Source of the DNA: Escherichia phage FFH2
DNA length: 64,000 bases
Sequence record: KJ190158
Direction: 5' to 3' (one strand)
Shown here one piece after another: positions 6,119 through 63,403 of the stretch (position 1 is the stretch's first letter; each line of letters opens with the position of its first letter). Below the pieces are notes generated by a model. That model made no database searches. It was not told the origin of the DNA and saw only the letters and a list, made by a program, of their open reading frames with translations. The translations under genes were made by a program, and so were the position numbers.

Positions 6119-7401
6119 TGCATCAGATCAAAACAACACTGTACGCACTGAACAAAGATGGCAGCTACCAACAGTGGAAAGTATTCACGGATGGTGATAA
6201 GGTTATCGTAGAGTTTGGCAAGCTTGATGGTAAACTGCAATACAAAGAGACGATCTGCACACCTAAGAACGTGGGTCGCGCCAATGAAACTACAGCTGAG
6301 CAACAGGCCGAGCTGGAAGCGATCAGTAAGTGGGAAAAACAGGTCCGACTCGGGTACGTGGAGAGTATGGAAGATTGTGAGCAAGGTGTTGATCTTTTAC
6401 CCATGTTGGTGCATGACTACCTGAAGCGTGGCAAGGCACTTAAATTACCTTGCTGGATCTTGCGTAAGTTAGATGGCCTTCGTCTACTTGTTGTTTTCCA
6501 GAATGGTGAGCCTAAATTTATTTCCCGTGGTAATAAGTCCTACCCTATTCAAGGGAAGCTTCTGGAGCAACTTCGCTCTTTCCACCTAACCACCGGGATT
6601 AAACAGCTCGACGGAGAGCTCTATATTCATGGTCTGCCTCTGCAGAAAATAGTGTCTCTTGCTAAACGGTGGCGCACACAGGAAGAAATTCAGGCCGAGA
6701 TCGATAAAGACTACAAGGCAGATAAAAAACGCCGTCAGGCTGCTATTAAAGCAGGTTTAGCAACATACAAAAACTTCAACAAGATGGACATTCCTGTTGA
6801 TGTTGAGCCTGTTCGTGATGATTTGCGTTACGGAGGGTACTGCAGCTACGACTTAGAGTATCATATTTTCGATATTCCTAGCGATAAGGTGTGGTGGGAT
6901 CCTGAAACAGAGTCTGGACGCTGTAAGGATCTTATGGAGGCAAATGGTGCTATTGCTTCTTTGATGCTTGATCATATTAAGGTTGTTGATGCAGAGCTTG
7001 CATACACAGTTGATCGGTGCGAAGAGTCTGTTGGTATATTTATGTCTGAGGGATATGAAGGTACCATTATGCGTAACTTCTGTGGTAAATATGAGTATGG
7101 TCAGCGAACATCTGAAGCATTGAAATGGAAAAAGTTCAACGACGCAGAGGTGAAAGTTATTGACGTTGAGAAAGATAAGAATGATGAAGGTGTTCTTATC
7201 TGTGTTGACAAGGAAGGTGTTATTGTTAAAATGAAGATGAAAGGCACGCACGAGGAGCGTAGCTATGACAGGATGCAGGAAATGATCGGCAAGTTTGTCA
7301 CCTTCAAATATCAATCAAGGACAGAAGACAACAACTACCAATTCCCTGTCGGTATCTGCGTCCGAAATGTTAACCCAGACACTTGGGAGGTGCTGGAATA
7401 A
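6118..7401 (+). CDS. ATP-dependent DNA ligase
   Basis: Motif I KxDGxR (RKLDGLR), motif III (QLDGELY), motif IV (EGTIMRN), motif V (KWKKF). Confidence 0.75.
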   Translation: MHQIKTTLYALNKDGSYQQWKVFTDGDKVIVEFGKLDGKLQYKETICTPKNVGRANETTAEQQAELEAISKWEKQVRLGYVESMEDCEQGVDLLPMLVHDYLKRGKALKLPCWILRKLDGLRLLVVFQNGEPKFISRGNKSYPIQGKLLEQLRSFHLTTGIKQLDGELYIHGLPLQKIVSLAKRWRTQEEIQAEIDKDYKADKKRRQAAIKAGLATYKNFNKMDIPVDVEPVRDDLRYGGYCSYDLEYHIFDIPSDKVWWDPETESGRCKDLMEANGAIASLMLDHIKVVDAELAYTVDRCEESVGIFMSEGYEGTIMRNFCGKYEYGQRTSEALKWKKFNDAEVKVIDVEKDKNDEGVLICVDKEGVIVKMKMKGTHEERSYDRMQEMIGKFVTFKYQSRTEDNNYQFPVGICVRNVNPDTWEVLE

Positions 7402-10541: not shown

Positions 10542-10873
10542 TGACTAAAAACTCTGTAGATAGTGCAATTATGGAAGCTGTTTTTGAGGATGATCATACA
10601 ACAGGGGCCATTAAAACAAAAAATACATTCGTTGTTGCCACAGGTATGTGGCGGTTGTATGAAGATGACACCATTTCATACATCCTGTACACAGATGATT
10701 ACGCAGATGACCGTGTATGGTCTGCTGTTTTAAAAGAGGATTGTGAGTTGATTGAGGGCGAGCGGTTATGCATGTTCACCAGTGTGGAAACAGATGTTAA
10801 GCTTTGCTCTCTCGTCTTGTTCAAAGATAAGGCTTATGCTCCTGATGAAGGAGAGGAGGATGAGGAAGCATGA
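10538..10873 (+). CDS. hypothetical acidic protein (111 aa)
   Basis: Overlapping start/stop with neighbours. Confidence 0.35.
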   Translation: MMTKNSVDSAIMEAVFEDDHTTGAIKTKNTFVVATGMWRLYEDDTISYILYTDDYADDRVWSAVLKEDCELIEGERLCMFTSVETDVKLCSLVLFKDKAYAPDEGEEDEEA

Positions 10874-43264: not shown

Positions 43265-43410
43265 GGTGTTTTTACCTCTTAGTTAATTTTCTTACAACTT
43301 CCCTTCAAAAAAGAATATAGCAAAACTGCCGATCCTTGTCAACCAAGGATAGCATAATTTTTATGTGATCAAGGGGCTTTATTGCCCCCCTGATCGTGCA
43401 ACTTGTTGTA

Positions 43411-43674
43411 TTATTTGTTGCTCATCCAGTTTTCCCAAGCTGCCTGATAATCTGCCTCACTGCGGCGGATCTCTTCTTGTTCTTCAAGCCGGATCTCTTC
43501 TTCCAGGTACCCCAGGATATCGGCTTTTTTGGTCTGGCGTAACATCCAATCATCTTTTTTACGAGTAAAGATCTTATAAGCTTTCTCGCAAACCTCTTTT
43601 TTGCTACCTTTTTGGACTTCAAGAACACGATAAGCCATATATTGAACTAGTTTGAGCTGGTCAAGACGTTTCAT
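43411..43674 (-). CDS. hypothetical protein (87 aa)
   Basis: Strong SD. Confidence 0.4.
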   Translation of the reverse strand: MKRLDQLKLVQYMAYRVLEVQKGSKKEVCEKAYKIFTRKKDDWMLRQTKKADILGYLEEEIRLEEQEEIRRSEADYQAAWENWMSNK

Positions 43675-43734
43675 AGTGTTTTCCTCTTTGTGCGGTTCTG
43701 ATTAGTGGGCCTTTTGGCCCGTGTCATTATCTTA

Positions 43735-44007
43735 TTACTTATGGCGGCAGAATTCAAGCGTTTTTAATTGATAATCTTCCTCAGCCTGGAGTACTACCGC
43801 CTCGATCATTTCGTTGGCATTGTTAAAGCCATAACCTTTAGCGAACTCATCCGCGCCACCTTCGTGATCATGTTCTGCGTTCATCGCTTCCACAAAATGG
43901 AATTCCAAATTGTTGAGGTAGGGGCTTGATGTTCCGTCCTCTTTTTCGATGAGATCCCAGATAGCATTAAAACGTGATTCGACTTCTTGATTAATCCAGC
44001 TTGACAT
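43735..44007 (-). CDS. hypothetical acidic protein (90 aa)
   Basis: Promoter TTGACA-17-TAACAT and 5' hairpin upstream. Confidence 0.4.
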   Translation of the reverse strand: MSSWINQEVESRFNAIWDLIEKEDGTSSPYLNNLEFHFVEAMNAEHDHEGGADEFAKGYGFNNANEMIEAVVLQAEEDYQLKTLEFCRHK

Positions 44008-44218
44008 AATGTTTTCCTCTCTTCTGGTTGTTGTGTGGGCACTTTTGCCCCTTCAAGATAAATGTTACCCCACCCCCTGGCAGATGTCAACGGTTTTTAT
44101 AGTTCTTATATGACAGGCAGGCCCGGTGATTGTCTCCCCCCGTCGCCAGGTGCCTGCCGTTGAATAAGTATAACAAAAAACAGGACCATTGCAAGCCCTG
44201 TTTTCTAGTCAATAAGGA

Positions 44219-44410
44219 TTATATTTTTTCGCCTATGTAGTCCGGTCGGTTTTTCTCTGTCATGCGCTTTAGCAATTCTTGCATGTTACTTATGGCTTGT
44301 AGTGTATCCCCTTCCAGGCTTGAATCAACATAATCAGGATCGTCTATGACCTTTCTATGATTATGATAACGCAGTACCGCTAATACCTTTCTAACTTGTT
44401 CGATATTCAT
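44219..44410 (-). CDS. hypothetical protein (63 aa)
   Basis: ORF followed by terminator-like hairpin. Confidence 0.35.
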   Translation of the reverse strand: MNIEQVRKVLAVLRYHNHRKVIDDPDYVDSSLEGDTLQAISNMQELLKRMTEKNRPDYIGEKI

Positions 44411-44559
44411 TTTTACCGCTCTTTAAAACAAGGTGCCAACCGTTTCCAATAGATCACTGACTACCAGGACAATACTGATCAGCACATACCTAACCATAAG
44501 GGGAAAGAGCGCCAGCGATCCCGCCACAATCCCCAAGGTGATGATTATCTTTCTCATGG

Positions 44560-44844
44560 TTAACGGTTTACGTAAGCTTTACCGTTTACGGTGATGGGCA
44601 GATCTTCCAGGTCTGGATCTTCCTTAAGGTCGCGAGCAAGCTCACCGCACCGGATACCCTCGAATCCGTAGTACTCTGTCGTGCCGTCCTGGAAAGTTTT
44701 AGCGGCAAGGCATAAGCGATAAGTAACCCCGATTTGATTGACGGCATGAATATCCGTTAGATTAACCTCTTTTGCCAGCTCTTTAGCCATTACAGGCGCA
44801 TTAAGTCCAACAACCAGGGCAACCACTGCGATCATCTTTTTCAT
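44560..44844 (-). CDS. secreted small protein with signal peptide (94 aa)
   Basis: N-terminus MKKMIAVVALVVGLNAPVMA. Confidence 0.45.
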   Translation of the reverse strand: MKKMIAVVALVVGLNAPVMAKELAKEVNLTDIHAVNQIGVTYRLCLAAKTFQDGTTEYYGFEGIRCGELARDLKEDPDLEDLPITVNGKAYVNR

Positions 44845-44935
44845 TGTGTCTATCCTCTTTCTGCTACGTTTAAGGCGGCGGTAACCGCCTGTTTATGCTT
44901 TGTTGGTTAATTTTCGGGTATCGGTATAAATTAAA

Positions 44936-45151
44936 CTATGCTGTACGCTCAACTATAACAACGGTTTGGGGGATCTCCCCTTCCACCACTAGTAAGGCCT
45001 TTTTCTGCGTGATAGATATCTTTACCCGTTGCAGCGTGGCGGTGAAGTCTTTCATTTCGTCACGTGGTGTTTTAGTGCAATGCCAGATTTCAGGCTTGCC
45101 GATCTGTAAGTTGCGTAAAAATTCTGTTTTTCCTGTTTTGTTAGTGATCAT
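44936..45151 (-). CDS. hypothetical protein (71 aa)
   Basis: Co-oriented ORF. Confidence 0.35.
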   Translation of the reverse strand: MITNKTGKTEFLRNLQIGKPEIWHCTKTPRDEMKDFTATLQRVKISITQKKALLVVEGEIPQTVVIVERTA

Positions 45152-45160
45152 TTGTCAACC

Positions 45161-45265
45161 TCACCCGATACCGTTGGAAGACAAGATCACATTAGCCATG
45201 GTTGCAATCAGGCCAATACCTAAGGCAATAACCAGGATCACAGCATCAATTAATTTTTGTTTCAT
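45161..45265 (-). CDS. small hydrophobic peptide (34 aa)
   Basis: Below cutoff; AGAGAATAAACACC-ATG SD context shared with neighbours. Confidence 0.3.
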   Translation of the reverse strand: MKQKLIDAVILVIALGIGLIATMANVILSSNGIG

Positions 45266-45342
45266 GGTGTTTATTCTCTTCTGTTAGTAACCTTATTCAT
45301 GGGGCCGTAGCAGCGGCCCCAGGGTAAGGCGGCTATATGCTT

Positions 45343-45588
45343 TTAGTGTTTCATTCCAACCATCGCGGCACGGATCGCCGTAGTGCTGTACTTGAAGCCG
45401 TCCGGGGTCTTATCTTGTCCGGTTAGCTCCAGAAAAAGCATCATATCCCGCGCCGCATCATTACGATTAGCATTGGCGTTAATAAAGCCTTGGGCCAACC
45501 GGTACAATGACTCATCGTTATTAATCCAAAGGCTTACATTCCAATGAGTTTTGTTTTTGTAACCGTTATAACCTTTATTGCTTTTCAT
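45343..45588 (-). CDS. hypothetical protein (81 aa)
   Basis: Strong SD (AAGAGGTAAACACC). Confidence 0.4.
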   Translation of the reverse strand: MKSNKGYNGYKNKTHWNVSLWINNDESLYRLAQGFINANANRNDAARDMMLFLELTGQDKTPDGFKYSTTAIRAAMVGMKH

Positions 45589-45679
45589 GGTGTTTACCTC
45601 TTCTTTGTTCCAGGTGGCGGATCATTCTACCACCTTATGTATTATGCTTTGTTAGATGGTTGTTTGTTGTCAAACTATT

Positions 45680-45859
45680 TTAACGATAATCATCATATGC
45701 TTTATTGACCTGGCGAATATAACATTCAAAAGCTAGATCAATAGATTTATATTCACGGATATATTCACCGTAGGAAACCACATACATTTCTATAGCTTCC
45801 TCATATGCGAGTAGAATAGAATCTAAGCCTACGATCTCAGTCTTTGCAATAATAGCCAT
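45680..45859 (-). CDS. small protein (59 aa), below ORF-track cutoff
   Basis: AAGAGGA SD; fills an otherwise empty 346-bp gap. Confidence 0.3.
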   Translation of the reverse strand: MAIIAKTEIVGLDSILLAYEEAIEMYVVSYGEYIREYKSIDLAFECYIRQVNKAYDDYR

Positions 45860-45934
45860 GATTTTTATCCTCTTTGTGGTTGGTGGGGCTTGTTGCCCCC
45901 TTTGATTTATATATTACAGTCTTATATGGTCATG

Positions 45935-46168
45935 TCAACTATTTTCAAAAAATTTTTCTGCTGTGATATTCTTCCCGGTAGGGTTCGCTACTTTCAAAAT
46001 TTTATCATGCACTGGACGCCCAAAAGAATAAGCGCCGTACACAGTAAACCAATAATCGCCGTCAGGTTGTACTATTACCGCCGCATATGGTACGCCTTTT
46101 TCGTTTTTGCTGACAAAATAGATCACATTGCCATTAATAGCCTCAGCGCGTTTAATTTGTTCCATCAT
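45935..46168 (-). CDS. hypothetical protein (77 aa)
   Basis: Strong SD. Confidence 0.4.
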   Translation of the reverse strand: MMEQIKRAEAINGNVIYFVSKNEKGVPYAAVIVQPDGDYWFTVYGAYSFGRPVHDKILKVANPTGKNITAEKFFENS

Positions 46169-46222
46169 GATGATTTACCTCTCTTTATTTTCATAATTGG
46201 GGCCTTTTCGGCCCCGCCAGGT

Positions 46223-46507
46223 TTATTTATTGATAGCGTGCAGTGGGAAAGGTACGCCAGGTTGATAAATAACCTTTACAACCTCATCAGGACAAAAGAA
46301 GTTGCAGAACTCACCGCAATATGCCTCATCCTCTTTCAACTCTTCATCAACATACTCAAAAAAGTAGTCGATGCTTGGATAATCCTGGCCGGGATTATAG
46401 TCAACCATCGTTAATAATAACTCTTGATCATTCCGTAGGATGTGCATACCCGCTTTTAAGTATTTTGCTTCCATTTCTACTACATCGCCAGCGGTAACAA
46501 TAGCCAT
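46223..46507 (-). CDS. hypothetical acidic protein (94 aa)
   Basis: ORF with GGAG SD. Confidence 0.4.
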   Translation of the reverse strand: MAIVTAGDVVEMEAKYLKAGMHILRNDQELLLTMVDYNPGQDYPSIDYFFEYVDEELKEDEAYCGEFCNFFCPDEVVKVIYQPGVPFPLHAINK

Positions 46508-46637
46508 GATTTTAACTCCTATCTATCTGGTCAACGATTGGGGGCCTCCCCCTCGACAACTCTTATTATCCATATTGTCGGGAATGATGCAAGTACTTCT
46601 TTAAAAATTTTTTAAGCGCCCCGTATGCCGTTGTAAC

Positions 46638-46673
46638 GCCAAAATAATAAAGGCCATGCGGTTGCATGGCCTT
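46638..46673 (-). terminator. intrinsic terminator (GGCCATGC aacc GCATGGCC + TTTATTATTTTGG on minus strand)
   Basis: Read directly. Confidence 0.6.
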
Positions 46674-46709
46674 TATGTGATTATATTGCTGCAGGCCCTG
46701 CTAGGGGCC

Positions 46710-47060
46710 TTATTTTGCATTCTTGCCTGTATTGCCGCCACGGTACCAGCGTCTGCGGTGAAAATGGTAATAATCACCCTCGGCATTAAACATCAGATGA
46801 TTTTCAATAACCAGCTTACGAAGGTAGGCCGGATCTTGTTCCATTCTTGCCAGATTCCAGCGGCTGTTACGTAAGCGTATAAATTCCATATTCAGGCCGT
46901 TGATTGCAGTATGGATGTCAAAGTAACCACCTTTGAGACGTTCACGCATGGCGTTAAGCTCAACACAATATACAGATTTCTCACAAATCAAGGTATTAGC
47001 TATGGCGCGGACCTGGGCAAGGGGGTTAAGCTCATTAAGGTAATATAGTTTTATTTTCAT
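46710..47060 (-). CDS. hypothetical protein (116 aa)
   Basis: Co-oriented ORF. Confidence 0.4.
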   Translation of the reverse strand: MKIKLYYLNELNPLAQVRAIANTLICEKSVYCVELNAMRERLKGGYFDIHTAINGLNMEFIRLRNSRWNLARMEQDPAYLRKLVIENHLMFNAEGDYYHFHRRRWYRGGNTGKNAK

Positions 47061-47077
47061 AAAATCACCTGCTGAAA

Positions 47078-47386
47078 TTAGTTTGAGAAAACATCGTTCA
47101 CAATAGCGATCACAATGCCGCCCACCTTGTCACGGTCAACAACGCACAAATCACCATAGATCATGCGGTAGTCTGGATGATCTTTCACAGAATAGTCAAT
47201 AAGTGTTTTCTTGTCGTCCAGCTTCGTAACTTCCATTCTCATAACGATATGAGAATCATCAAAGGCATTATTCCGAAAAGTCATAGCCTGACCGCCAGGG
47301 CACCCGGTGATCTCCACTTCCACACCATCTACGATCTGACCATCAAAGAAATAAAGATTATTAGCCTGGATAAACATGTCTATCAC
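47078..47386 (-). CDS. hypothetical protein (102 aa)
   Basis: Preceded by the conserved promoter-hairpin repeat. Confidence 0.4.
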   Translation of the reverse strand: MIDMFIQANNLYFFDGQIVDGVEVEITGCPGGQAMTFRNNAFDDSHIVMRMEVTKLDDKKTLIDYSVKDHPDYRMIYGDLCVVDRDKVGGIVIAIVNDVFSN

Positions 47387-47424
47387 TCCTTGTTAACTGC
47401 GTGGTCTTTTAACAGGGTTTAAAT

Positions 47425-47470
47425 TTACTTTATTGATGGCCCTGAAGTCAAGGCCATCTAAAAATAAATT
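47425..47470 (-). repeat. conserved 45-bp promoter-associated hairpin element, copy 1
   Basis: tttactttattGATGGCCctgaagtcaaGGCCATCtaaaaataaatt; minus strand carries TTGACT in the loop and TAAATT 18 nt downstream. Confidence 0.5.
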
Positions 47471-47671
47471 TTACAGGCCTACAATCTCTTTGATTCGTTT
47501 AACCGCCGCCTCAGCGCCTTGGGGGTAAAAATTATGGTAACCAATCACGCGAGTGATACTAATCGCCGTTTGATGATCTTCATAGTCGCCCTTGAAGATT
47601 TCTTGACCGTCAATCAGCACGGCAATTTTTTCTTCTTTTTTGAAGTTAATAACGCGGATATTGTTGCTCAT
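47471..47671 (-). CDS. hypothetical protein (66 aa)
   Basis: Strong SD. Confidence 0.4.
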   Translation of the reverse strand: MSNNIRVINFKKEEKIAVLIDGQEIFKGDYEDHQTAISITRVIGYHNFYPQGAEAAVKRIKEIVGL

Positions 47672-48149
47672 TTTTGTTTCTCCTTTCTGGTTTTTGTGTT
47701 GGTGGGGATGTTTCCCCGTTGATTGTTATTATCCATATTGCGGACCAGATTGCAACACCCTGGAAGAAAAATTTTTTGAAAAAGTTAAGCCCCCATGATC
47801 GGGGGCGTTATCAGTTACTTATAGCAATAAAGTACATTCCTACCCCTAACAATATTTCAAGGGCGATGATCTCAAGCCATACCATAACACGGCGCACCTT
47901 ATCAGCGCATGGCTTATCCTTGGTTGTCATCGTCTCCCCCTTCCCTCCTGTTAGTAGTGACGTGGTTTACAATGGCCCCCAGGAGTCCTATCACCACGCA
48001 CACCACAAGAAAAATTATCTCCGCTGTTGTTCGATCCATTGTTATAAAATTCCTCAAGATCAGGCCTGAAAATAAAGCGTTCGTTATTGAATCCGTCACG
48101 CCAGGCGGCTGGCTTCAAATCTTCACTAAAGGGATTAATTAACGTGACG

Positions 48150-48521
48150 TTATTTAAACGGCTGGTCCACATATTTTCTATTCCTCTCAAATAGGCGATC
48201 CGCCTCAGTTAAACATATCTCATGGGCTTGGTCTCTGGTTTTAGCCTCATCAAAAACCTGTTGTGCCAGGCTGCAGCGTAGGGAGACTGGAAGATCACTA
48301 TAATAGGCGTTGACAAACGTTTGTGCGTCATACAGGTCGGAAAACACTTTACCCTTTCTATTATCGCCCTTGTCAACAATTGCAAGGATAACCAATACAA
48401 TAGTTGCAACCACTCCCAGGAAAATAGATATAACAAACCATAGAAAAGCGGATCTACCTATCTTGCCAGCGATCCAGGCGTTGAACAAGGCAACTACTAC
48501 AGCCAAAATAATAAATTCCAT
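48150..48521 (-). CDS. small membrane protein (about 123 aa)
   Basis: Start reassigned to internal ATG 48519-48521 with AAGAGG SD; 2-3 hydrophobic helices. Confidence 0.4.
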   Translation of the reverse strand: MEFIILAVVVALFNAWIAGKIGRSAFLWFVISIFLGVVATIVLVILAIVDKGDNRKGKVFSDLYDAQTFVNAYYSDLPVSLRCSLAQQVFDEAKTRDQAHEICLTEADRLFERNRKYVDQPFK

Positions 48522-48585
48522 TCTATGTACCTCTTTTGCAGTTCTGTTTAACAATAAGGCGGCAAATATGCCGCCTGTTACCTGA

Positions 48586-48966
48586 TTAAAAATTATCGCC
48601 GTAAATCTTTCCGCTTTCTGCCCACACCACCACGCGGGGCATGTTATCCCATACATCTTGTTTCAGATTTAACGCGTGCAATTCTTCGGTGGTGCTCATA
48701 CCAGGCACGGGCTGATTGTATACTGCAAAACGACCACCTGCATAATCATAGGCCAGGGTTAAATCACACTGAATCATCTTTTTGATCATGGCGTTGAGCA
48801 TAGCGTTAGCCGCATACTGGTCACGTTTTAAAGGCAACTCTTTGATTAGTTTGCGATAGTTTTCAATGTGATCGCACACTGTTTCACGTGGAAGATCTTT
48901 CATATCCTCGCGAAAGGTAACCAGGTTAAACATAACGGTGTCAATAGCTTTAGTAGTGTTTTTCAT
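48586..48966 (-). CDS. hypothetical protein (126 aa)
   Basis: Promoter TTGCAA-16-TATATT and 5' hairpin GGGGGCAAGacgtttGCCCC upstream. Confidence 0.4.
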   Translation of the reverse strand: MKNTTKAIDTVMFNLVTFREDMKDLPRETVCDHIENYRKLIKELPLKRDQYAANAMLNAMIKKMIQCDLTLAYDYAGGRFAVYNQPVPGMSTTEELHALNLKQDVWDNMPRVVVWAESGKIYGDNF

Positions 48967-49055
48967 AATGTTTTCCTCTTTGTTTTGTGTGGGGCAAACG
49001 TCTTGCCCCCTTGAGTTTTAATATAGCAGGTTTTTAGATTATTGCAACACTTTAT

Positions 49056-49679
49056 TTATGAAAAACTCATCTCTCCATATTCATCTACATCAAACCGCCA
49101 ATCATTGGCCTCAATAAGGCCGATCAGGTTTTCGGTAGTGAACTGCTCTAGATAGGCCTCCTCCAGGTCTACGTAAACCTTGCGGGATAGCTCCCGTACC
49201 GTCTCGGTGATCAGCTCTTCCAGGTCTTCCACTTTGTTTTCTTGTTTGGCGGTCAGATCTAGCCAGGTGGTATCAATGTATCCGCTTACAGTGTTTTCAT
49301 GGCTGTAATGGCTGTACTTGTCGCGTTCAATACTGGCTGATAACTCGCCATCGTGCATTGTGCCGAACAAGTGACGAATTGATCGGAACTTGGTCAGGGC
49401 CTTTACTTTACGCAAGAATTTTTCTAAATCCACGTTTTCAGCACTGATTGACGCGCCGTCACCCTGGCACCAAAAGCCGGACCAATGTACATCGGTATCT
49501 TCAAGGCCGTACTCTGGAAAAACTTGTTCTTTATAATATTCAATTACACTTTCTGCGAAAAAATCCTCTCCGCTGTGTTCTTCTCTTTCGCGGACCATTT
49601 CAATAGCTTTTTCTTTTTGTTCGTCGGTCAGCACGTCGAAAGATAAATTGCAACCTGTGGTAATGTTAACGGTGGTCAT
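49056..49679 (-). CDS. hypothetical acidic protein (207 aa)
   Basis: Promoter TTGACA-16-TATAAT and 5' hairpin upstream. Confidence 0.45.
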   Translation of the reverse strand: MTTVNITTGCNLSFDVLTDEQKEKAIEMVREREEHSGEDFFAESVIEYYKEQVFPEYGLEDTDVHWSGFWCQGDGASISAENVDLEKFLRKVKALTKFRSIRHLFGTMHDGELSASIERDKYSHYSHENTVSGYIDTTWLDLTAKQENKVEDLEELITETVRELSRKVYVDLEEAYLEQFTTENLIGLIEANDWRFDVDEYGEMSFS

Positions 49680-49736
49680 GATATTTTCTCCTGTTTTCTT
49701 TGTTAGTGGCGGGAAGTTTTCCCGCCTGTGTGTTTA

Positions 49737-49764
49737 ATTATACTTATTGAGATTTACTTGTCAA
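49737..49764 (-). promoter_or_regulatory. sigma70-like promoter (TTGACA-16-TATAAT) followed by 5' stem-loop GGCGGGAAaactTCCCGCC (49708-49726)
   Basis: Read directly on minus strand. Confidence 0.5.
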
Positions 49765-50014
49765 CACTATTTTTTAAATTATTGTGGCGCAAAATGTTTA
49801 AAATCTCTTCAACGTCATCAACACGGCGGCAATTTTTAAACGCTACCAATTGCCCCATGATTTTAATCACTGGGCGGCCTTGCCAGTGCCCCTGGAGAAA
49901 GCGCGCCTTGACTTTATCGGTGGGACTATCACGCCACCAAATGGCCTTGTTATTGCAGTAGTAAAAATTATTCAGGACAATATCAACTTTATCAAAATTT
50001 TTTAATTTACGCAT
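49754..50014 (-). CDS. hypothetical protein (86 aa)
   Basis: Co-oriented ORF. Confidence 0.35.
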   Translation of the reverse strand: MRKLKNFDKVDIVLNNFYYCNNKAIWWRDSPTDKVKARFLQGHWQGRPVIKIMGQLVAFKNCRRVDDVEEILNILRHNNLKNSVDK

Positions 50015-50259
50015 AGTGTTTACTCCTTCCTTCTTGCTTTGATGTGGTTAGTATATCCGGACTATTCCAAGGTGTCAAGCTTTAAATAAAATCACTGTCA
50101 ATGATATTTTTAACACCATAAAACGGCCCTAGGCGATGTTTTCAGGTTAATAAAGGGGATTGCATAGGTAGGGGCTTTTGTGGCGTTTGTGGGGCCAACC
50201 AGGGGCGCTATTCGTAGGATAGAAATAAAAAGCCCCGCACAATGGCGGGGCGTTGGTTG

Positions 50260-50481
50260 CTATTTGTCTTTGTGGCGGTATCGTTCCGCCTGTCGTTCAC
50301 GTTCCAAAAGCAGGCCCGGTAATTTGCGATCATAGTGATTTCTCCAGATCTTCCCGAACCTTTTCGGTTTATTCAGTTTATTGTTACGCTGGCGGCGTTC
50401 CGGCAGCTCTTCGGAATCGTGGGGGCGCTTTACAATTTTTTCGAAATTAATTTTCATAAACGCCCCCTTTACTGATCTCAA
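50260..50481 (-). CDS. small highly basic protein (73 aa)
   Basis: Arg/Lys-rich; possible nucleic-acid binder. Confidence 0.35.
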   Translation of the reverse strand: MRSVKGAFMKINFEKIVKRPHDSEELPERRQRNNKLNKPKRFGKIWRNHYDRKLPGLLLERERQAERYRHKDK

Positions 50482-50818
50482 TATTTGCCTGAATCGCCCG
50501 GATACGACGTTTTATAGTCTCCTGATCCTTGCAATCATATCCCCAAAAGTCTACGATTTTTGCGCCGCCAGCCTTTAAGCGGTATAATGTTTCTTGCATC
50601 TTGTAAGCTGGGATCGGTCTCGGTGTTACCTGGTCCCCTTTCCCATCCTTGTACTTGATAATGTAGTCTTCGTTGTCGTTGAATACCCAAAATGGGTATT
50701 CTGTAAGCGCGTTGCTCTCTTTTTCGTTTTTGGATTGGATCTTGTTTACAATTAAAGCCGTAGCAATAGCGCCAATAATAAAACTTGCCCCGCTGATCAT
50801 GTTACTTTCTCCTTTCAT
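50447..50818 (-). CDS. membrane-anchored protein (123 aa)
   Basis: N-terminal hydrophobic helix. Confidence 0.4.
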   Translation of the reverse strand: MKGESNMISGASFIIGAIATALIVNKIQSKNEKESNALTEYPFWVFNDNEDYIIKYKDGKGDQVTPRPIPAYKMQETLYRLKAGGAKIVDFWGYDCKDQETIKRRIRAIQANIEISKGGVYEN

Positions 50819-50876
50819 TGTGCTGATAAACTATCTTTATAGATGGCCCTGCCACCAGGACCACCGAAAAAACAGT

Positions 50877-51122
50877 TTATTTGACGATACCGACAAAACA
50901 GATCCCGCCTTCCCCTATATAGGCAATATCGGTAATTTTATAATTTGTCAAGATCCGCGTGTTCAGATCATTAATAAAATCGGTCATCGCGTTGGTGTAG
51001 TTGTCTTCCGTGTCTAAGGCATAATCCCAGGTGTAAACCTTTTTACGTCCGAAGCCTTTTACCATGATACGGGCGCTTTTGGTGTTGGTAGGGGCATAAT
51101 ATTTGGTAATTAGTGCGGCCAT
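50877..51122 (-). CDS. hypothetical protein (81 aa)
   Basis: Preceded by conserved promoter-hairpin repeat copy 2. Confidence 0.4.
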   Translation of the reverse strand: MAALITKYYAPTNTKSARIMVKGFGRKKVYTWDYALDTEDNYTNAMTDFINDLNTRILTNYKITDIAYIGEGGICFVGIVK

Positions 51123-51165
51123 TGTTTTAACTCCTCTATATTAGTTCAGTGTTAACAGTGTAAAG

Positions 51166-51213
51166 TTTACTTTATTGATGGCCCTGGAGTCAAGGCCATC
51201 TAAAAATAAATTT
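51166..51213 (-). repeat. conserved 45-bp promoter-associated hairpin element, copy 2
   Basis: Near-identical to copy 1 (ctggag in place of ctgaag). Confidence 0.5.
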
Positions 51214-51553
51214 ACTCGTTTTCTTCCAGTTCTGCAAGCTCTTCTTTCACTTCTTCAAGCTCTGTCTGTAATTCTTGGTATTCTTCATCGTCCTCAATAT
51301 CCAGGCTGTCGATGTAGTCGCTAAATCCGCAGCGGTAAGCGATAGGATCTAGCTCCTTGAGGATACGCGACGGAAGAAAAGAAATGTTTCCGATCATAAT
51401 TTCGCCGTAGATCTCGTCTAACCATTCATCATAGTTTTCGTCGTACTTGTCCTCGTCGATTTCAAAGTTATCGATCTTATTCTCAAGGTCTGCGATCTGT
51501 TTTTTCAGCGCGGCGATCTGCATGGCTTTTTCTGCGGCGGTCATAGTAGTCAT
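51212..51553 (-). CDS. hypothetical acidic coiled-coil protein (113 aa)
   Basis: Promoter TTGACA-18-TACTAA and 5' hairpin upstream. Confidence 0.4.
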   Translation of the reverse strand: MTTMTAAEKAMQIAALKKQIADLENKIDNFEIDEDKYDENYDEWLDEIYGEIMIGNISFLPSRILKELDPIAYRCGFSDYIDSLDIEDDEEYQELQTELEEVKEELAELEENE

Positions 51554-51631
51554 GGTGTTTTCTCCTTTTGTGTGTTCTGGGAAGTTTTCCCGTTTATGTG
51601 TTTAGTATACTGATCTAAGTTAGCTTGTCAA

Positions 51632-51751
51632 TTAAAAGTTTAAGAAAAATTTTGCGATACCGTTGGCGCTACCCATCAACATTTGCGCCAGGATGTAACC
51701 AATGATGCAAACGATAATAGTTACCTTTGTGTGCTGGCGTGTAGTACTCAT
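51632..51751 (-). CDS. small hydrophobic peptide (39 aa)
   Basis: Below cutoff; AAGGAGG SD; downstream of promoter-hairpin repeat copy 3. Confidence 0.3.
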   Translation of the reverse strand: MSTTRQHTKVTIIVCIIGYILAQMLMGSANGIAKFFLNF

Positions 51752-51783
51752 CTTCAAGCCTCCTTTTAGCTTAACTGGGATTA

Positions 51784-51830
51784 GTTTACTTTATTGATGG
51801 CCCTGGCGTCAAGACCATCTAAAAATAAAC
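51784..51830 (-). repeat. conserved 45-bp promoter-associated hairpin element, copy 3
   Basis: Near-identical to copies 1 and 2. Confidence 0.5.
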
Positions 51831-52226
51831 TTAGTAAGTTTTCAGTACTTTCCCGTCCAATCTGTCAAGCTGGATCTCGATAGCTGCAGAAAACCTATTA
51901 TAAACCACATCGCCCATGGAGTCCAGCCAATCTATGACGTTATACACCTGCTCTTTATTCTTGCAAGTCCGGATCCGTTTCATTACGTAAGACGGATCAA
52001 TATTAGTGCTCTCGTTGTTGTGGTCATGCGCCTGGCCTGCTGCATTAGTTATAGATTTTACAACCACCTGAAAGGGCTTTAAGGTGCCTTTTGCGTTCAT
52101 CTCACGCGCTTTTGCGGCGCGGTTGTTATATGTTACACAACGGCGGCAAATGTTGACCAAATGCATATCAATAATTTTTTCATCGTTTGCCAGTTCGTTC
52201 ATGATGCGGCGTACGTTCTTATTCAT
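51831..52226 (-). CDS. hypothetical protein (131 aa)
   Basis: Promoter TTGACA-16-TAAACT and 5' hairpin GGCGGGAAtgttTCCCGCC upstream. Confidence 0.4.
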   Translation of the reverse strand: MNKNVRRIMNELANDEKIIDMHLVNICRRCVTYNNRAAKAREMNAKGTLKPFQVVVKSITNAAGQAHDHNNESTNIDPSYVMKRIRTCKNKEQVYNVIDWLDSMGDVVYNRFSAAIEIQLDRLDGKVLKTY

Positions 52227-52312
52227 GATCTTTTTCCTTTGTGTTGGCGGGAAACATTCCCGCCTTTTGTGCCCAGTTTACTTTAATTTTGCAGCGTGTC
52301 AATAATTTTTTT

Positions 52313-53538: not shown

Positions 53539-53660
53539 TTGCTTTCTTTGTCCTGTGTGATACTATAATAACAAGCCGGGGCAACAGGGGCCGGGAGACA
53601 ATCACCGGGCCTGCCCGTTATTCTGCAAACGAGAATGATTATCATTCAAAATTCTAAATG
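53539..53660 (+). ncRNA. candidate small RNA unit 2 (TTGCTT ... TATAAT, GGGAGACAATCACCGG hairpin, GAGAATGATTATCATT tail)
   Basis: Tandem to unit 1 in a non-coding island. Confidence 0.3.
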
Positions 53661-53762
53661 AGAACTCCTCGCATTTAATAAATTTAATTAGCACGCTAAT
53701 TACACTCCGTAACAATTTACTATAAAATAGTATCCACTAAAATATTCCCATATAGAAATTTT

Positions 53763-53950
53763 AAAAATCCATTTCTGAAAACGAAAAATCGATTTCGTCC
53801 CTAAAAATTTCAGGCCTAGATCCGGAACGATTTCCAGAAAATCCGATTCAGAAAACGAAAAACAGATCGAGTACTGAGAAATTTATCGAGAAAAATTTTC
53901 AGAAAATCCAAGCCCTGAAATGAAAAGTAGATCGAGTACCTGGAAAGCTG
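53763..53950. repeat. three degenerate tandem direct repeats (about 65 bp each; core AGAAAATCC ... CTGAAAACGAAAA ... GATCGAGTAC)
   Basis: Read directly; inverted partial copies at 54112-54215. Confidence 0.55.
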
Positions 53951-54251
53951 CACCGCAACTTCAAGATAGTGGTTAGATTGTTACCATAGAAGGTCAAGGG
54001 TAAGTGGAGGAAGTTCTAGTAGAGGGAGGTTAGCATGTGTGGGAAATCTATAATGGTGGCCTGGAATATAGTGCAAACGATAGGATGAGTTATTCAGCTT
54101 GTCGCGCCTACTCTGAAAAATCCATTTTAGTTTTCGATCCATTTTCTGATTTTCTAAGAATTTTAAAATATCCGGCCCGGTGAAATATCAAAAGGAGGAA
54201 ATCCATTTTAGAAATCCCCCTTATACTTGATATGCCAGGAATTTTCAAGTA

Positions 54252-56074: not shown

Positions 56075-56614
56075 TCAACACTTTTTGTACTCCACCACGA
56101 TAATATCCATATCAAAAGTGGCAAGGTTAATAACGTCCTCTACGTGCTCCCACTTCAAACCGCCTATGCCGCACCCGATCTTAGGGATGTAGAATGGTAA
56201 AGTCGATCCACTGAATACCTCATTGACTAGCTCAAAGCCTTTCAGGATTGAGAAATATTCAGCATTAGGTCCTGGGTAGAACTGAGTATACAGATTGATT
56301 CCGTAGACAATACCTCTCGGAGATAAGTGCTCCCATCGGGAGAACGCACCCAGTTTACTTAGGCAACCATGTCTGGTCTCTTTGTCAGCTGCCAATGCTT
56401 GAGGGAACTCACGGGCAATCTGTTTTGCTATCCCCTTGCCCATTGTGTGGAAGCAGTTACAACCGTGGATCAGGTGACCAGCACCACTCTTAAAAAGGGA
56501 GATTAAATCTCCCTCTACAGTATCAATAATCACGGTATGCCAGCTCCTCTTCCACAATTTCAAAAAACTCATCCCAACCTTGTGGCATATTTGAGTTACC
56601 GAAGTGGCTTTCAT
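56075..56614 (-). CDS. macro-domain protein, Poa1p-like (ADP-ribose derivative phosphatase/hydrolase family)
   Basis: HGCNCFHTMGKGIAKQIAREFP and IPKIGCGIGGLKW match the Poa1p-like macro signatures (N-C ... MG.GIA and GCG.GGL.W); start uncertain (possible GTG near 56533). Confidence 0.65.
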   Translation of the reverse strand: MKATSVTQICHKVGMSFLKLWKRSWHTVIIDTVEGDLISLFKSGAGHLIHGCNCFHTMGKGIAKQIAREFPQALAADKETRHGCLSKLGAFSRWEHLSPRGIVYGINLYTQFYPGPNAEYFSILKGFELVNEVFSGSTLPFYIPKIGCGIGGLKWEHVEDVINLATFDMDIIVVEYKKC

Positions 56615-59016: not shown

Positions 59017-59381
59017 TATTTGTCTCCTTGTTCTTCGTTAGTGCTTGCCGTGTGTGCGAACCCTGCTTGAATTAATTTGTCCTGAACTTGAGCCAACAGG
59101 CCCATTGCAAAACTTGTGGTCCCAGAGAGGGCCATCAGCATATCCCGTTGTTGAGCTACCCAACCTAAGGCATAGTCCAAACGACGATATTTTTCTTCTT
59201 CACGCAGAGCCTGAAATAATTGTTCAGCCTCCGGTTGTTGTGTGAGCTCCTGAAGTCTTCCCATGAAAGAAGAAAGCACTAGCAAAAGAGACACTTGATC
59301 TTTACTTAACCCTAAGAAAAATTCTTGAGGTTGTTCTTGCTCGTTCATCGCAACCGACTCTTGATCGTTCATTTGTTCCAT
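59016..59381 (-). CDS. hypothetical protein (121 aa)
   Basis: Start/stop overlap with neighbours. Confidence 0.4.
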   Translation of the reverse strand: MEQMNDQESVAMNEQEQPQEFFLGLSKDQVSLLLVLSSFMGRLQELTQQPEAEQLFQALREEEKYRRLDYALGWVAQQRDMLMALSGTTSFAMGLLAQVQDKLIQAGFAHTASTNEEQGDK

Positions 59382-59464
59382 TATGGAATCTCCGATTTTA
59401 TTTGAACAACATAGAAGGAGACACTATTTTAGCATCCCCTTCTGTAAATTACAATAGGTATTTG

Positions 59465-62560: not shown

Positions 62561-63403
62561 CATCTGTTCAGGTAGGTCGTTAAGCTACCCCGCACCATTA
62601 CGTGCATAGCCATACAGTTTCCTGTATGGATCGGACTACCTCACTGCCTTGGTAACAAGGCACCTCCCATTTCGACCGCACTTGCTGGCCTACTCTACTC
62701 GCTTCTTCACACCAACCTATGTTGGAGCTATGCTTTCGATAGTCTCTGAACGTTACTACCAGGTGTAGTTTTTAGAGATATGTTTCCACTGTCTTCTTTG
62801 CTTTATAGCCCTGACGGTCTCATAAGGATATCCAAGATCCCTAATCTCGCATTGTCGTAGACCACTCTGCAACAGTTCGCAAATCTCTATTACCTCATCT
62901 TCTGTCAGCACAGCGTTAGCATTATACTCACCAACTGGCCTTACTCTGAGGTCATTATCATAGGCGTGCTTGATATTTCCACCAGGGGTGGTCCATTCTA
63001 GGTTCCAGTATGCATTGTTGTACTTATTCCCATCCTTATGGTTCACCCATGTGAGTCTTTCAGGATCTGGGTTTGATACAAAGCATTCAGCAACCAGGTG
63101 GTGGACACCTTTTGTGCACTGCTTCCCCTCGATTAGCATGGTTACGCAAAGGTAACCTCTACCATTATCAAAACAAAACATTGTTGTATGATCACGTTTC
63201 GATAAAGGTATTGTTCCATCATCAAACACGGTATACCCGTGATAATCAGCTGTTCTAGCCATTTTAACTACACCCCTTTAGTCTTCGCTGCGGATTAGCA
63301 TATTGAGCTTTTACCATACTCAGGTGTAAAAGTCAACTTAGCTTCCCCGTCAATTAAAGAGGTTATTCGACATAGATTACTCTATGAAGCCACAATGTTA
63401 TTT
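62561..63403 (-). mobile_element. putative group I intron in the DNA polymerase gene, carrying an HNH homing endonuclease
   Basis: 843-bp insertion exactly before motif C; upstream exon ends in U (CAT), intron ends in G; the upstream frame stops immediately after the junction. Confidence 0.6.
62756..63262 (-). CDS. HNH homing endonuclease (intron-encoded)
   Basis: VNHKDGNKYNNAYWNLEWT HNH motif, similar to the nrdD-intron endonuclease. Confidence 0.7.
   Translation of the reverse strand: MARTADYHGYTVFDDGTIPLSKRDHTTMFCFDNGRGYLCVTMLIEGKQCTKGVHHLVAECFVSNPDPERLTWVNHKDGNKYNNAYWNLEWTTPGGNIKHAYDNDLRVRPVGEYNANAVLTEDEVIEICELLQSGLRQCEIRDLGYPYETVRAIKQRRQWKHISKNYTW

Follow-up and report, generated by a model that had tools for sequence, protein, structure and literature searches.

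We analysed a window of 64,000 nucleotides from Escherichia phage FFH2 (sequence record KJ190158; all positions are those of this whole stretch), concentrating on a 9-kb block, 43265-52310, in which many small minus-strand genes are preceded by a short GC-rich hairpin and a strong Shine-Dalgarno (SD) sequence. The block shares 93–96% identity with ~70 genomes of Vequintavirus (rV5-like) coliphages, and by sequence the window is that of a Vequintavirus. The GenBank record of phage Murica annotates the block as a succession of small leftward hypothetical genes, and for all 20 of the encoded proteins that we tested the sole matches were to PHROG families of unknown function. The 10 close relatives differ in gene content, and on this comparison the block behaves as a variable set of accessory genes. 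Since each gene is transcribed from a host sigma70-type promoter, we presume them to be early. A tRNA search of the region found none, an Rfam scan of 43-53 kb (E ≤ 1) gave one sub-threshold chance hit and no family match, and a Pfam scan of ten larger early-region proteins of the window gave no match to a recombinase or DNA-binding family.

Hairpin cassettes in front of small leftward genes

The hairpins fall into two classes, 13 in class 1 and 4 in class 2, with folding energies (ΔG) from -5.5 to -17.8 kcal/mol. A class-1 cassette consists, in order, of an A/T-rich tract, a sigma70-like promoter, a short gap, a GC hairpin (stem 5–8 bp, loop 3–6 nt), an A/C-rich leader, an SD and the ATG. The promoters have the form TTGACA or TTGCAA, 16-17 nt, TAnnnT, with A/T tracts upstream. 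The original prediction put such a promoter ahead of the hairpins generally; a consensus scan found one (score 9-12 of 12) ahead of most of them, 10 of the class-1 layouts having a recognisable promoter and three conserved hairpin leaders having none. With their own sigma70-type promoter and strong ribosome-binding site (RBS), most of the genes are modular and individually driven, as had been proposed. The SD is GAGGA, AGGAG or GAGG, followed by an A-rich spacer of 7-9 nt to the ATG. A uniform GAGG(A/T)AAACACC had been claimed here; the strong SD and the A-rich spacer are real, and the spacers (aaacacc, aaacatt, aaaatatc) are alike across genes, not identical. A 23-24-nt translation-start repeat is present in 4-5 copies. 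Between hairpin and SD the leader is 7–20 nt long and consists of 58% A, 26% C, 10% G and 6% T. The predicted leaders fold into the 5' hairpin as practically their sole structure, with SD and AUG unpaired.

All the hairpins that the original prediction listed are present, within a few bases of where it placed them. They include the GGGG(C)…(G)CCCC hairpins at 43707-43720, 44037-44050, 45300-45321, 45885-45899, 46199-46215, 46540-46552 and 48991-49009, and the stem form GGCGGGAA-n3-TTCCCGCC at both 49708-49726 and 52246-52264, whose loop is 3 nt and not 4. To these we add hairpins at 47704-47717, 51578-51592, 45612-45635 and 44873-44890. The class-1 elements are listed here, all on the minus strand, with promoter names from rV5 where there is an equivalent.

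52224..52302, minus strand: class-1 cassette of gene 51831-52226; TTGACA-16-TAAACT 52275-52302 (rV5 P194); 10-nt gap; hairpin GGCGGGAAtgtTTCCCGCC 52246-52264; leader aacacaa; SD AGGA 52235-52238; ATG 52224-52226; minimum-free-energy structure of the leader is the 5' hairpin alone (z = -2.9)
51551..51631, minus strand: class-1 cassette of gene 51212-51553; TTGACA-16-TATACT 51604-51631 (rV5 P192); weak hairpin (C)GGGAAaacTTCCC 51578-51592; A/C-rich leader; SD AGGAG 51562-51566; shares a 38-nt repeat (family D12) with the 49679 cassette
49677..49764, minus strand: class-1 cassette of gene 49056-49679; consensus TTGACA-16-TATAAT 49737-49764, score 12 of 12 (rV5 P185); 10-nt gap; hairpin GGCGGGAAaacTTCCCGCC 49708-49726 (fold z = -3.95); SD AGGAG 49688-49692
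48964..49047, minus strand: class-1 cassette of gene 48586-48966; TTGCAA-16-TATATT 49020-49047; hairpin GGGGCAAgacgtTTGCCCC 48991-49009; leader acacaaaacaaa; SD GAGGA 48974-48978
47669..47755, minus strand: class-1 cassette of gene 47471-47671; TTGCAA-16-GATAAT 47728-47755; hairpin GGGGAaacaTCCCC 47704-47717; 19-nt A/C leader; SD AGGAG 47680-47684
46505..46592, minus strand: class-1 cassette of gene 46223-46507; TTGCAT-16-GATAAT 46565-46592; 12-nt gap; hairpin GGGGGaggCCCCC 46540-46552; SD AGGAG 46516-46520
45857..45938, minus strand: class-1 cassette of gene 45680-45859; TTGACA-16-TAATAT 45911-45938 (rV5 P174); hairpin GGGGCaacaaGCCCC 45885-45899; leader accaaccacaaa; SD GAGGA 45868-45872
45586..45673, minus strand: atypical class-1 cassette of gene 45343-45588; TTGACA 45668-45673 and CATAAT 45641-45646; gap of only 5-6 nt; hairpin AGGTGGT…GCCACCT 45612-45635; SD GAGG 45597-45600
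44005..44090, minus strand: class-1 cassette of gene 43735-44007; TTGACA-17-TAACAT 44062-44090 (rV5 P168); 11-nt gap; hairpin GGGCAaaagTGCCC 44037-44050; A/C leader; SD GAGGA 44015-44019
43672..43757, minus strand: class-1 cassette of gene 43411-43674; weak TTGAAT-17-TAAGAT 43729-43757, overlapping the upstream gene's end; 8-nt gap; hairpin GGGCCaaaaGGCCC 43707-43720; SD GAGGA 43682-43686
46166..46215, minus strand: hairpin leader without recognisable promoter, gene 45935-46168; hairpin GGGGCCgaaaaGGCCCC 46199-46215 (fold z = -2.85), no T-tract after it; SD GAGG 46178-46181
45263..45321, minus strand: hairpin leader without recognisable promoter, gene 45161-45265; hairpin TGGGGCCGctgctaCGGCCCCA 45300-45321; SD-like GAGA 45275-45278
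44842..44890, minus strand: hairpin leader without recognisable promoter, gene 44560-44844; hairpin AGGCGGttaccgCCGCCT 44873-44890; SD GAGGA 44853-44857

To assess how far this layout exceeds chance, we scanned mechanically for a hairpin followed by an SD and then an ATG, and compared the result with 200 dinucleotide shuffles of the region. There are 13 such layouts on the minus strand at 43.7–52.3 kb, compared to 0.26 in the shuffles (maximum 2), and 25 GC hairpins on the minus strand of 43265-52310, compared to 5.0±2.2. Elsewhere on the minus strand of the window the layout occurs only once, at 62645-62662, and the hairpins upstream of plus-strand genes are ordinary terminators. The region is very probably an array of promoter–hairpin–RBS early-gene cassettes, serving about seventeen small genes, that resemble the PeSL cassettes described in the T4-like phages RB49/phi1, PST/T4 and nt-1/KVP40 (PMC2839356, Arbiol et al. 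2010; PMC4122927, Comeau et al. 2014). Our literature search found no description of these cassettes in rV5-like, PVP-SE1-like or phi92-like phages. The rV5 paper predicted the same promoters and listed some terminators of the region (t177, t181, t184); its promoter and terminator lists mention neither the hairpins downstream of the promoters nor the 63-nt repeat described below. The PeSL precedent had escaped the original prediction, as had the role of the cassettes as sites of gene gain and loss.

The position of the hairpin is closely fixed. In all seven strong-promoter cassettes, 10-11 nt separate the end of the -10 box from the first paired base, and the gap sequences differ. Given a canonical start 7-8 nt past the -10 box, the mRNA is predicted to have 2–6 nucleotides unpaired (median 3–4) at its 5' end and the hairpin directly after them. 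N4-type hairpin promoters were considered as an identity for these elements and set aside, full sigma70 hexamers being present. A promoter without a hairpin also occurs in the block: at 50050-50110 two tandem TTGACA boxes precede gene 49754-50014, and a 23-bp indel deletes one of them in four relatives (L001, which is Murica, and L014, L016 and L017).

On the gene strand a T-tract is lacking after every class-1 and class-2 hairpin, and the tails there read, for example, aacacaaa, actaacaa, accaacac or aataaagt. All six true terminators of the region carry T-tracts:

50232..50251, minus strand: intrinsic terminator, GC hairpin followed by TTTTTATTT
48557-48576, 47789-47806, 46647-46676, 44174-44207 and 43373-43388: further intrinsic terminators

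In a terminator scan these six pass, and the cassette hairpins appear terminator-like on the opposite strand only. One could imagine that the hairpins terminate antisense (plus-strand) transcription, using the T-rich sequence that follows them there; several do look like plus-strand terminators in a consensus scan, for example 52246-52264 followed by TTTTGTG. However, the T-tract is contiguous in one case only, most of the T-richness mirrors, on the complementary strand, the A-rich gap and the -10 box, mean folding energy favours the sense strand (-11.9 vs -10.7 kcal/mol), and plus-strand promoters are few in the block. We regard antisense termination as extremely improbable, and for want of T-tracts we discarded it.

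Two features of the window lie beyond the block. A gene-free gap of ~600 bp at 53650-54250 is dense in repeated AAAATGGATTT and TTTTCGTTTTC(A/T)GAA-type motifs and contains three degenerate 62-nt repeats (53746-53946); it looks iteron-like and may be an origin or regulatory region. A 165-aa early protein encoded at 56075-56572 has a partial Macro-domain match (E = 2.4e-6).

Selection on hairpin structure over sequence

We compared the cassettes with those of ten aligned relatives (86–96% identity) taken from GenBank phages; a protein search of IMG/VR for relatives gave two rV5-like contigs only. Divergence from the window across the ten is 3.8% in stems, 3.4% in the -35 box, 5.7% in the -10 box, 8–9% in spacers, 9.9% at codon position 3, and 17.3% in loops. 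Folding of the hairpin is retained in every orthologue, even where loops have been exchanged, stems lengthened or shifted, or, in the 45588 cassette, the stems wholly exchanged. For example, altered stems still pair in orthologues of the 48964..49047 cassette; the 47669..47755 cassette and the hairpin at 44873-44890 (L013, L016) keep the stem with another loop; the loop of the 43672..43757 cassette has AAAA, GGGA and GAAA variants; the hairpin at 46540-46552 has undergone a compensatory change of GGGGG/CCCCC to GGAGG/CCTCC in L003 (G-C to A-U); and at 45300-45321 transitions retain pairing through G·U.

Four of the 13 hairpins have also been flipped as a whole, to the exact reverse complement between unchanged flanks: 52246-52264 in L003, 48991-49009 in L017, 46199-46215 in L013 (where the hairpin is also lengthened) and 45300-45321 in L011 and L017. 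The high divergence of loops is owed in large part to these flips. Because a flip inverts the loop alone and leaves the arms unchanged, loop sequence cannot matter much. Across these alignments, selection acts on the structure of the hairpin over its sequence.

The same layout and spacing occur, even more regularly, in Seunavirus PVP-SE1, in phi92 and in Phapecoctavirus ESCO25, and related cassettes were found in Seunavirus, Phapecoctavirus and Justusliebigvirus. The hairpins are thus conserved in relatives, persisting in the 10 Vequintavirus relatives and in three further genera. In ESCO25 and phi92 (Stephanstirmvirinae) the order is TTGACA, 16–17 nt, the -10 box, ~10 nt ending …cacgta, and GGGCGG…CCGCC, with TAGGGCGG conserved at the start of most hairpins; PVP-SE1 hairpins have the form GGCCGGGGAA…TTCCCCGGC. 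Over four phages, the gap from -10 box to hairpin is 8–13 nt in 27 of 29 promoter-plus-hairpin pairs, and when the criteria were tightened, each of the 18 hairpins found no more than 60 nt from a strong promoter was 8–13 nt past its -10 box. Since the gap is fixed in four genera while its sequence diverges, the hairpin is tied to the start site and not to the end of the upstream gene. No such cassettes accompany distant homologues of the 207-aa protein in IMG/VR (L004-L009).

Covariation was measured among 13 cassettes of four phage groups, aligned without gaps; this alignment superseded an earlier mixed one of 22 hairpins that was not structure-consistent. In the gap-free alignment 98% of cells are paired, a fraction inflated by our having selected and registered the 13 hairpins by hand, and in 15 cells both sides have changed. 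Covariation scored 0.50, compared to 0.21 in shuffles; none of 500 shuffles reached it, and slid controls scored far lower.

The variability of the hairpins bears on the idea, raised in the original prediction, that an RNA-binding protein or RNase recognises them–for example an antiterminator of the N/boxB kind, a translational repressor resembling RegA or a nuclease whose processing times early expression. Their constant position near the 5' end would suit such a role, several loops are A-rich or GNRA-like (GAAAA, AAAA, GGGA, GAAA), and the conserved TAGGGCGG of phi92 and ESCO25 could be read in the same way. On the other hand, loops are the fastest-changing part of the element and are exchanged outright or reverse-complemented while the element is retained, stem sequences vary between cassettes, we saw no boxA-like partner motif, and the Rfam scan matched no family. 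For class 1 a recognition site is therefore unlikely, and we hold this account to be a long way from the best. N/boxB-like (lambda-type nut) sites in particular were ruled out, because the loops vary and flip and no shared linear motif lies alongside. RNase III sites were ruled out as well; stems of 5-10 bp are too short for that enzyme.

A second arrangement, in which the hairpin encloses the -10 box, lies upstream of the gene starting at 59381 (~59395-59425: GAAGGGGA, 13 nt including TAAAAT, TCTCCTTC). Hairpins around the -10 box are also found at gene starts 12066 (L021) and 17347 (L023) in ESCO25 and PVP-SE1. By their layout, these form a second PeSL-like subclass.

The 63-nt repeat and gene exchange at cassette boundaries

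The original prediction described three 45-bp elements with a 7-bp stem and TTGACT in the loop. They exist within a few bases of the positions given (3 copies with 0-3 mismatches; 0 expected by chance) and are in fact part of a 63-nt repeat, our class 2, of which there are three good copies and a fourth, degenerate one. The repeat starts at the upstream gene's stop codon with tttattttta, then comes the hairpin and then the -10 box. The hairpin, GATGGCCTTG-acnn-CAGGGCCATC, wraps a TTGAC(T) -35 box, and a TAAACT or TAAATT -10 box follows 18 nt on. Its 7-bp stem can be extended to 10 bp with one G·U pair, the TTGAC lying in or beside the loop.

51771..51833, minus strand: class-2 copy 1, before gene 51632-51751; tttattttta tract; hairpin GATGGTCTTGacgcCAGGGCCATC 51796-51819; -35 TTGACG inside the hairpin, 18 nt, -10 TAAACT (promoter 51783-51812)
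51152..51214, minus strand: class-2 copy 2, before gene 50877-51122; hairpin GATGGCCTTGactcCAGGGCCATC 51177-51200; TTGACT-18-TAAACT 51164-51193
47410..47472, minus strand: class-2 copy 3, before gene 47078-47377; hairpin GATGGCCTTGacttCAGGGCCATC 47435-47458; TTGACT-18-TAAATT 47422-47451
50817..50879, minus strand: class-2 copy 4 (degenerate), before gene 50447-50800; hairpin GGTGGTCCTGgtggCAGGGCCATC 50842-50865

Copy 4 has lost the -35 box but still has a 10-bp stem, three substitutions having left its pairing intact; in the 10 relatives its stem is invariant and only loop bases vary. More generally, class-2 stems are invariant across the 4 copies in 11 genomes, where only the two loop bases after TTGAC vary. 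Among the copies, each of the five stem transitions maintains pairing, as a gene-strand G·U (roughly p ≈ 0.03). Because it lies around the -35 box, upstream of the start site, the class-2 hairpin is unable to cap its own mRNA. Two of the 45-bp elements, the equivalent of copy 3 among them, are labelled as terminators in the Murica record (7352-7396 and 10739-10783). This is probably a mis-annotation, because no T-tract follows the hairpin on either strand, and we flag it as a probable error. A search of IMG/VR with the class-2 pattern hit the same two rV5-like contigs as the protein search, and within that database class 2 appears confined to rV5-like phages.

Cassettes of both classes coincide with points of genome rearrangement. 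By BLAST of the window against its relatives we listed indels and replacements, and worked out three of them to the base. Missing from phage ime is exactly window 51211–51782, the interval between class-2 copies 1 and 2, and one hybrid repeat is left in its place. Gene 45343–45588 and the next hairpin are absent from three of the ten relatives (L012, L013 and L015), with the crossover inside a shared …AGAGG-aaaca-ATGAAA segment from SD to ATG. The 43674 cassette of ime has its promoter, hairpin and SD in front of a different, inserted gene. One of these junctions is thus in the 63-nt repeat and two are in the SD-ATG segment. Over all events, 27 of 33 breakpoints are intergenic or ≤15 nt from a gene end, compared to 33% expected, an excess that selection against broken genes would partly produce by itself. 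As read from these alignments, the repeated cassettes are recombination substrates, and gain, loss and swapping of genes take place at their boundaries.

Unrelated coliphages, too, carry pieces of the block. The coding sequence of 45343-45588, and only that, is 84-86% identical in the jumbo phages PBECO4 and G17 (81 aa, phrog_871), and the gene appears to be horizontally exchanged. Its promoter spacer is 21 nt in the window, compared to 17 nt in L010 and L017 (a 4-nt indel), and the promoter may consequently be weakened in FFH2.

These rearrangements could also mean that the inverted repeats act in DNA, as cruciforms or recombination sites, or, in class 2, as an operator: GATGGCC-N10-GGCCATC over the -35 box would be bound by a dimeric phage regulator that switches the class-2 promoters off. 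The flipping of whole hairpins, seen at 4 of 13 sites, happens at the level of DNA, one indel runs exactly between two class-2 repeats, class-2 stems are invariant while class-1 stems vary, and a protein that specifically binds the stem-loops was raised by the PeSL authors (PMC2839356). However, two of the three resolved junctions are outside the hairpin, the class-2 stem transitions pair only as sense-strand G·U and so break the symmetry of the palindrome, the proteins scanned against Pfam include no recombinase or DNA-binding match, and class-1 stems differ by cassette, leaving no single recognition sequence. Taken together with its operator version, we consider an action in DNA improbable. 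We see still less in favour of a bolder proposal, that the cassettes are recognition sites of a dedicated cassette-mobilising activity, integron-attC-like or based on template switching. If it were true, this activity would excise, flip and insert promoter-equipped gene cassettes, with the class-2 palindrome as its preferred site, and would exchange them across Vequintavirinae, Stephanstirmvirinae and jumbo phages.

Proposed function and relation to known systems

We lean towards PeSL-like cassettes with end-protecting hairpins as the explanation of the whole array; protection of mRNA ends is the likeliest role for the hairpin, and whether protection of the 5' end is its main function we consider evenly balanced. 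E. coli RNA polymerase would start 7-8 nt past the -10 box and produce a transcript with 2-6 free nucleotides and then the hairpin, the 10-nt gap being perhaps the closest position that a GC stem can take outside the melted region of the open complex. The 5'-proximal hairpin would hinder RppH and 5'-end-dependent entry of RNase E, and would keep the leader from pairing with the RBS. A leader poor in G and T, which does not pair, and a strong SD would complete a context-independent expression unit, such that any gene placed in the cassette would receive a stable, strongly translated mRNA. That 5' structures stabilise mRNA, RNase E and RppH needing single-stranded 5' ends, is established (PMC3997798). 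Protection of early messages would make sense in these phages because T4 Srd stimulates RNase E (PMC4980113) and rV5 gp11 is a probable Srd homologue (rV5 paper). The protective 5' hairpin of the original prediction is accordingly reasonable for class 1, with its fixed distance from the -10 box; it does not hold for class 2.

Several points weigh against this proposal. RppH and RNase E require ≥2 and prefer ≥3 unpaired nucleotides (PMC8833179), so that with 2-6 nt predicted to be unpaired, protection would be partial. Capping of 5' ends is not the only role, given the 3 promoter-less hairpins and the class-2 hairpins upstream of the start. Our search of the literature on Vequintavirinae, phi92 and PVP-SE1 yielded no start-site or transcriptome data. 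The G·U strand bias is mixed in class 1 (22 vs 16) and clear for class 2 only. True compensatory double substitutions among orthologues are few. RNAalifold showed next to no covariation in short orthologue sets, because MAFFT misaligns short, indel-rich hairpin segments. The hand-picked covariation set and the partly expected position of breakpoints, mentioned above, belong here too, as does the finding that one PeSL stem-loop cut downstream expression as strongly as a terminator (PMC2839356).

The last point leads to an alternative in which the hairpins are attenuators or terminators that insulate the cassettes from upstream transcription, their position relative to the start site being incidental. 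This role has been proposed for PeSL stem-loops, one of which, placed between promoter and lacZ, lowered expression about as much as rrnB T1 (PMC2839356). Three of our hairpins have no promoter, the class-2 hairpin and the promoter-less fourth copy can act on read-through RNA only, and there is the terminator label in the Murica record. Against it, the gene strand has no T-tract after any class-1 or class-2 hairpin and has one after each true terminator, and a mere insulator does not need to be 8-13 nt from the -10 box across four genera whose gap sequences diverge. Insulation as the general explanation is unlikely, though it is the rival that we would take most seriously. Protection and a read-through effect could coexist: in read-through RNA the same hairpin would lie on the 3' side of the upstream cistron, where it might block 3' exonucleases or attenuate, and because of their positions this is the sole role open to the promoter-less and class-2 hairpins.

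The cassettes matter in several ways. They extend promoter/stem-loop/RBS cassettes from T4-like phages to the large rV5/PVP-SE1/phi92/phAPEC8 group of therapeutic and biocontrol coliphages, and as expression units and recombination linkers alike they help to explain the mosaic early regions of these phages. The rule that the hairpin begins ~10 nt past the -10 box predicts the 5' ends of dozens of early mRNAs, and for expression in E. coli the cassettes offer compact parts of natural origin. Should the hairpins indeed protect mRNA ends, they would be relevant to the survival of phage messages during the degradation of host mRNA.

Among known systems, the leaders of ompA and T7 gene 10 are the classic 5'-hairpin stabilisers of mRNA in E. 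coli, and 5'-terminal stabilising stem-loops (in the ompA and papA 5' untranslated regions and in the T7 gene 10 leader) are known from a review (PMC3997798) and reportedly from Emory, Bouvet and Belasco (1992). The class-1 cassettes share with them a simple hairpin near the 5' end whose structure counts and not its sequence, an unstructured leader and a strong SD, and the nucleases concerned, RNase E and RppH, are those of the host E. coli. They differ in that their 5' ends are predicted, with a 2-6 nt overhang at the edge of protection, and in that the same device recurs in front of many genes and also serves as a recombination module. Intrinsic terminators and 3' stabiliser hairpins resemble the elements in having a GC stem of 5-10 bp and a short loop in intergenic RNA, but class-1 and class-2 hairpins have no 3' U-tract, and the T-rich tract of class 2 is on the 5' (wrong) side. 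The morons of lambdoid phages (promoter, gene, terminator) are likewise autonomous accessory genes inserted between others; however, they have no shared flanking cassettes as recombination sites, whereas the cassettes here are repeated and have related versions in other genera.

The closest match is the PeSL. A PeSL comprises an AT-rich tract, a near-consensus sigma70 promoter, a GGGG…CCCC stem-loop with G·T pairs, an SD and the ATG of an ORFan (PMC2839356). Five subclasses are distinguished by the position of the stem-loop, among them one over the -35 box and one downstream of the -10 box (PMC2839356), and PeSLs are concentrated in hyperplastic regions, with crossovers between SD and -10 box (PMC2839356, PMC4122927). 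Our cassettes are the same in layout, from the AT tract through the GC stem-loop with G·T pairs to the ATG of a small ORFan; in their dense arrays in a variable early region, with indels whose crossovers fall within the cassette; and in having subclasses over the -35 box, over the -10 box and downstream of it. They differ in that they belong to Vequintavirinae and Stephanstirmvirinae and not to T4-like phages, for which reason we file them as PeSL-like and not as members of the T4 set, and in that their hairpins lack a T/U-tract, which argues against canonical termination. Finally, the stem-loops of RB49/phi1 mostly lie in the stretch separating -35 from -10 or over the -10 box, whereas here the dominant position is fixed ~10 nt past the -10 box, inside the predicted transcript.

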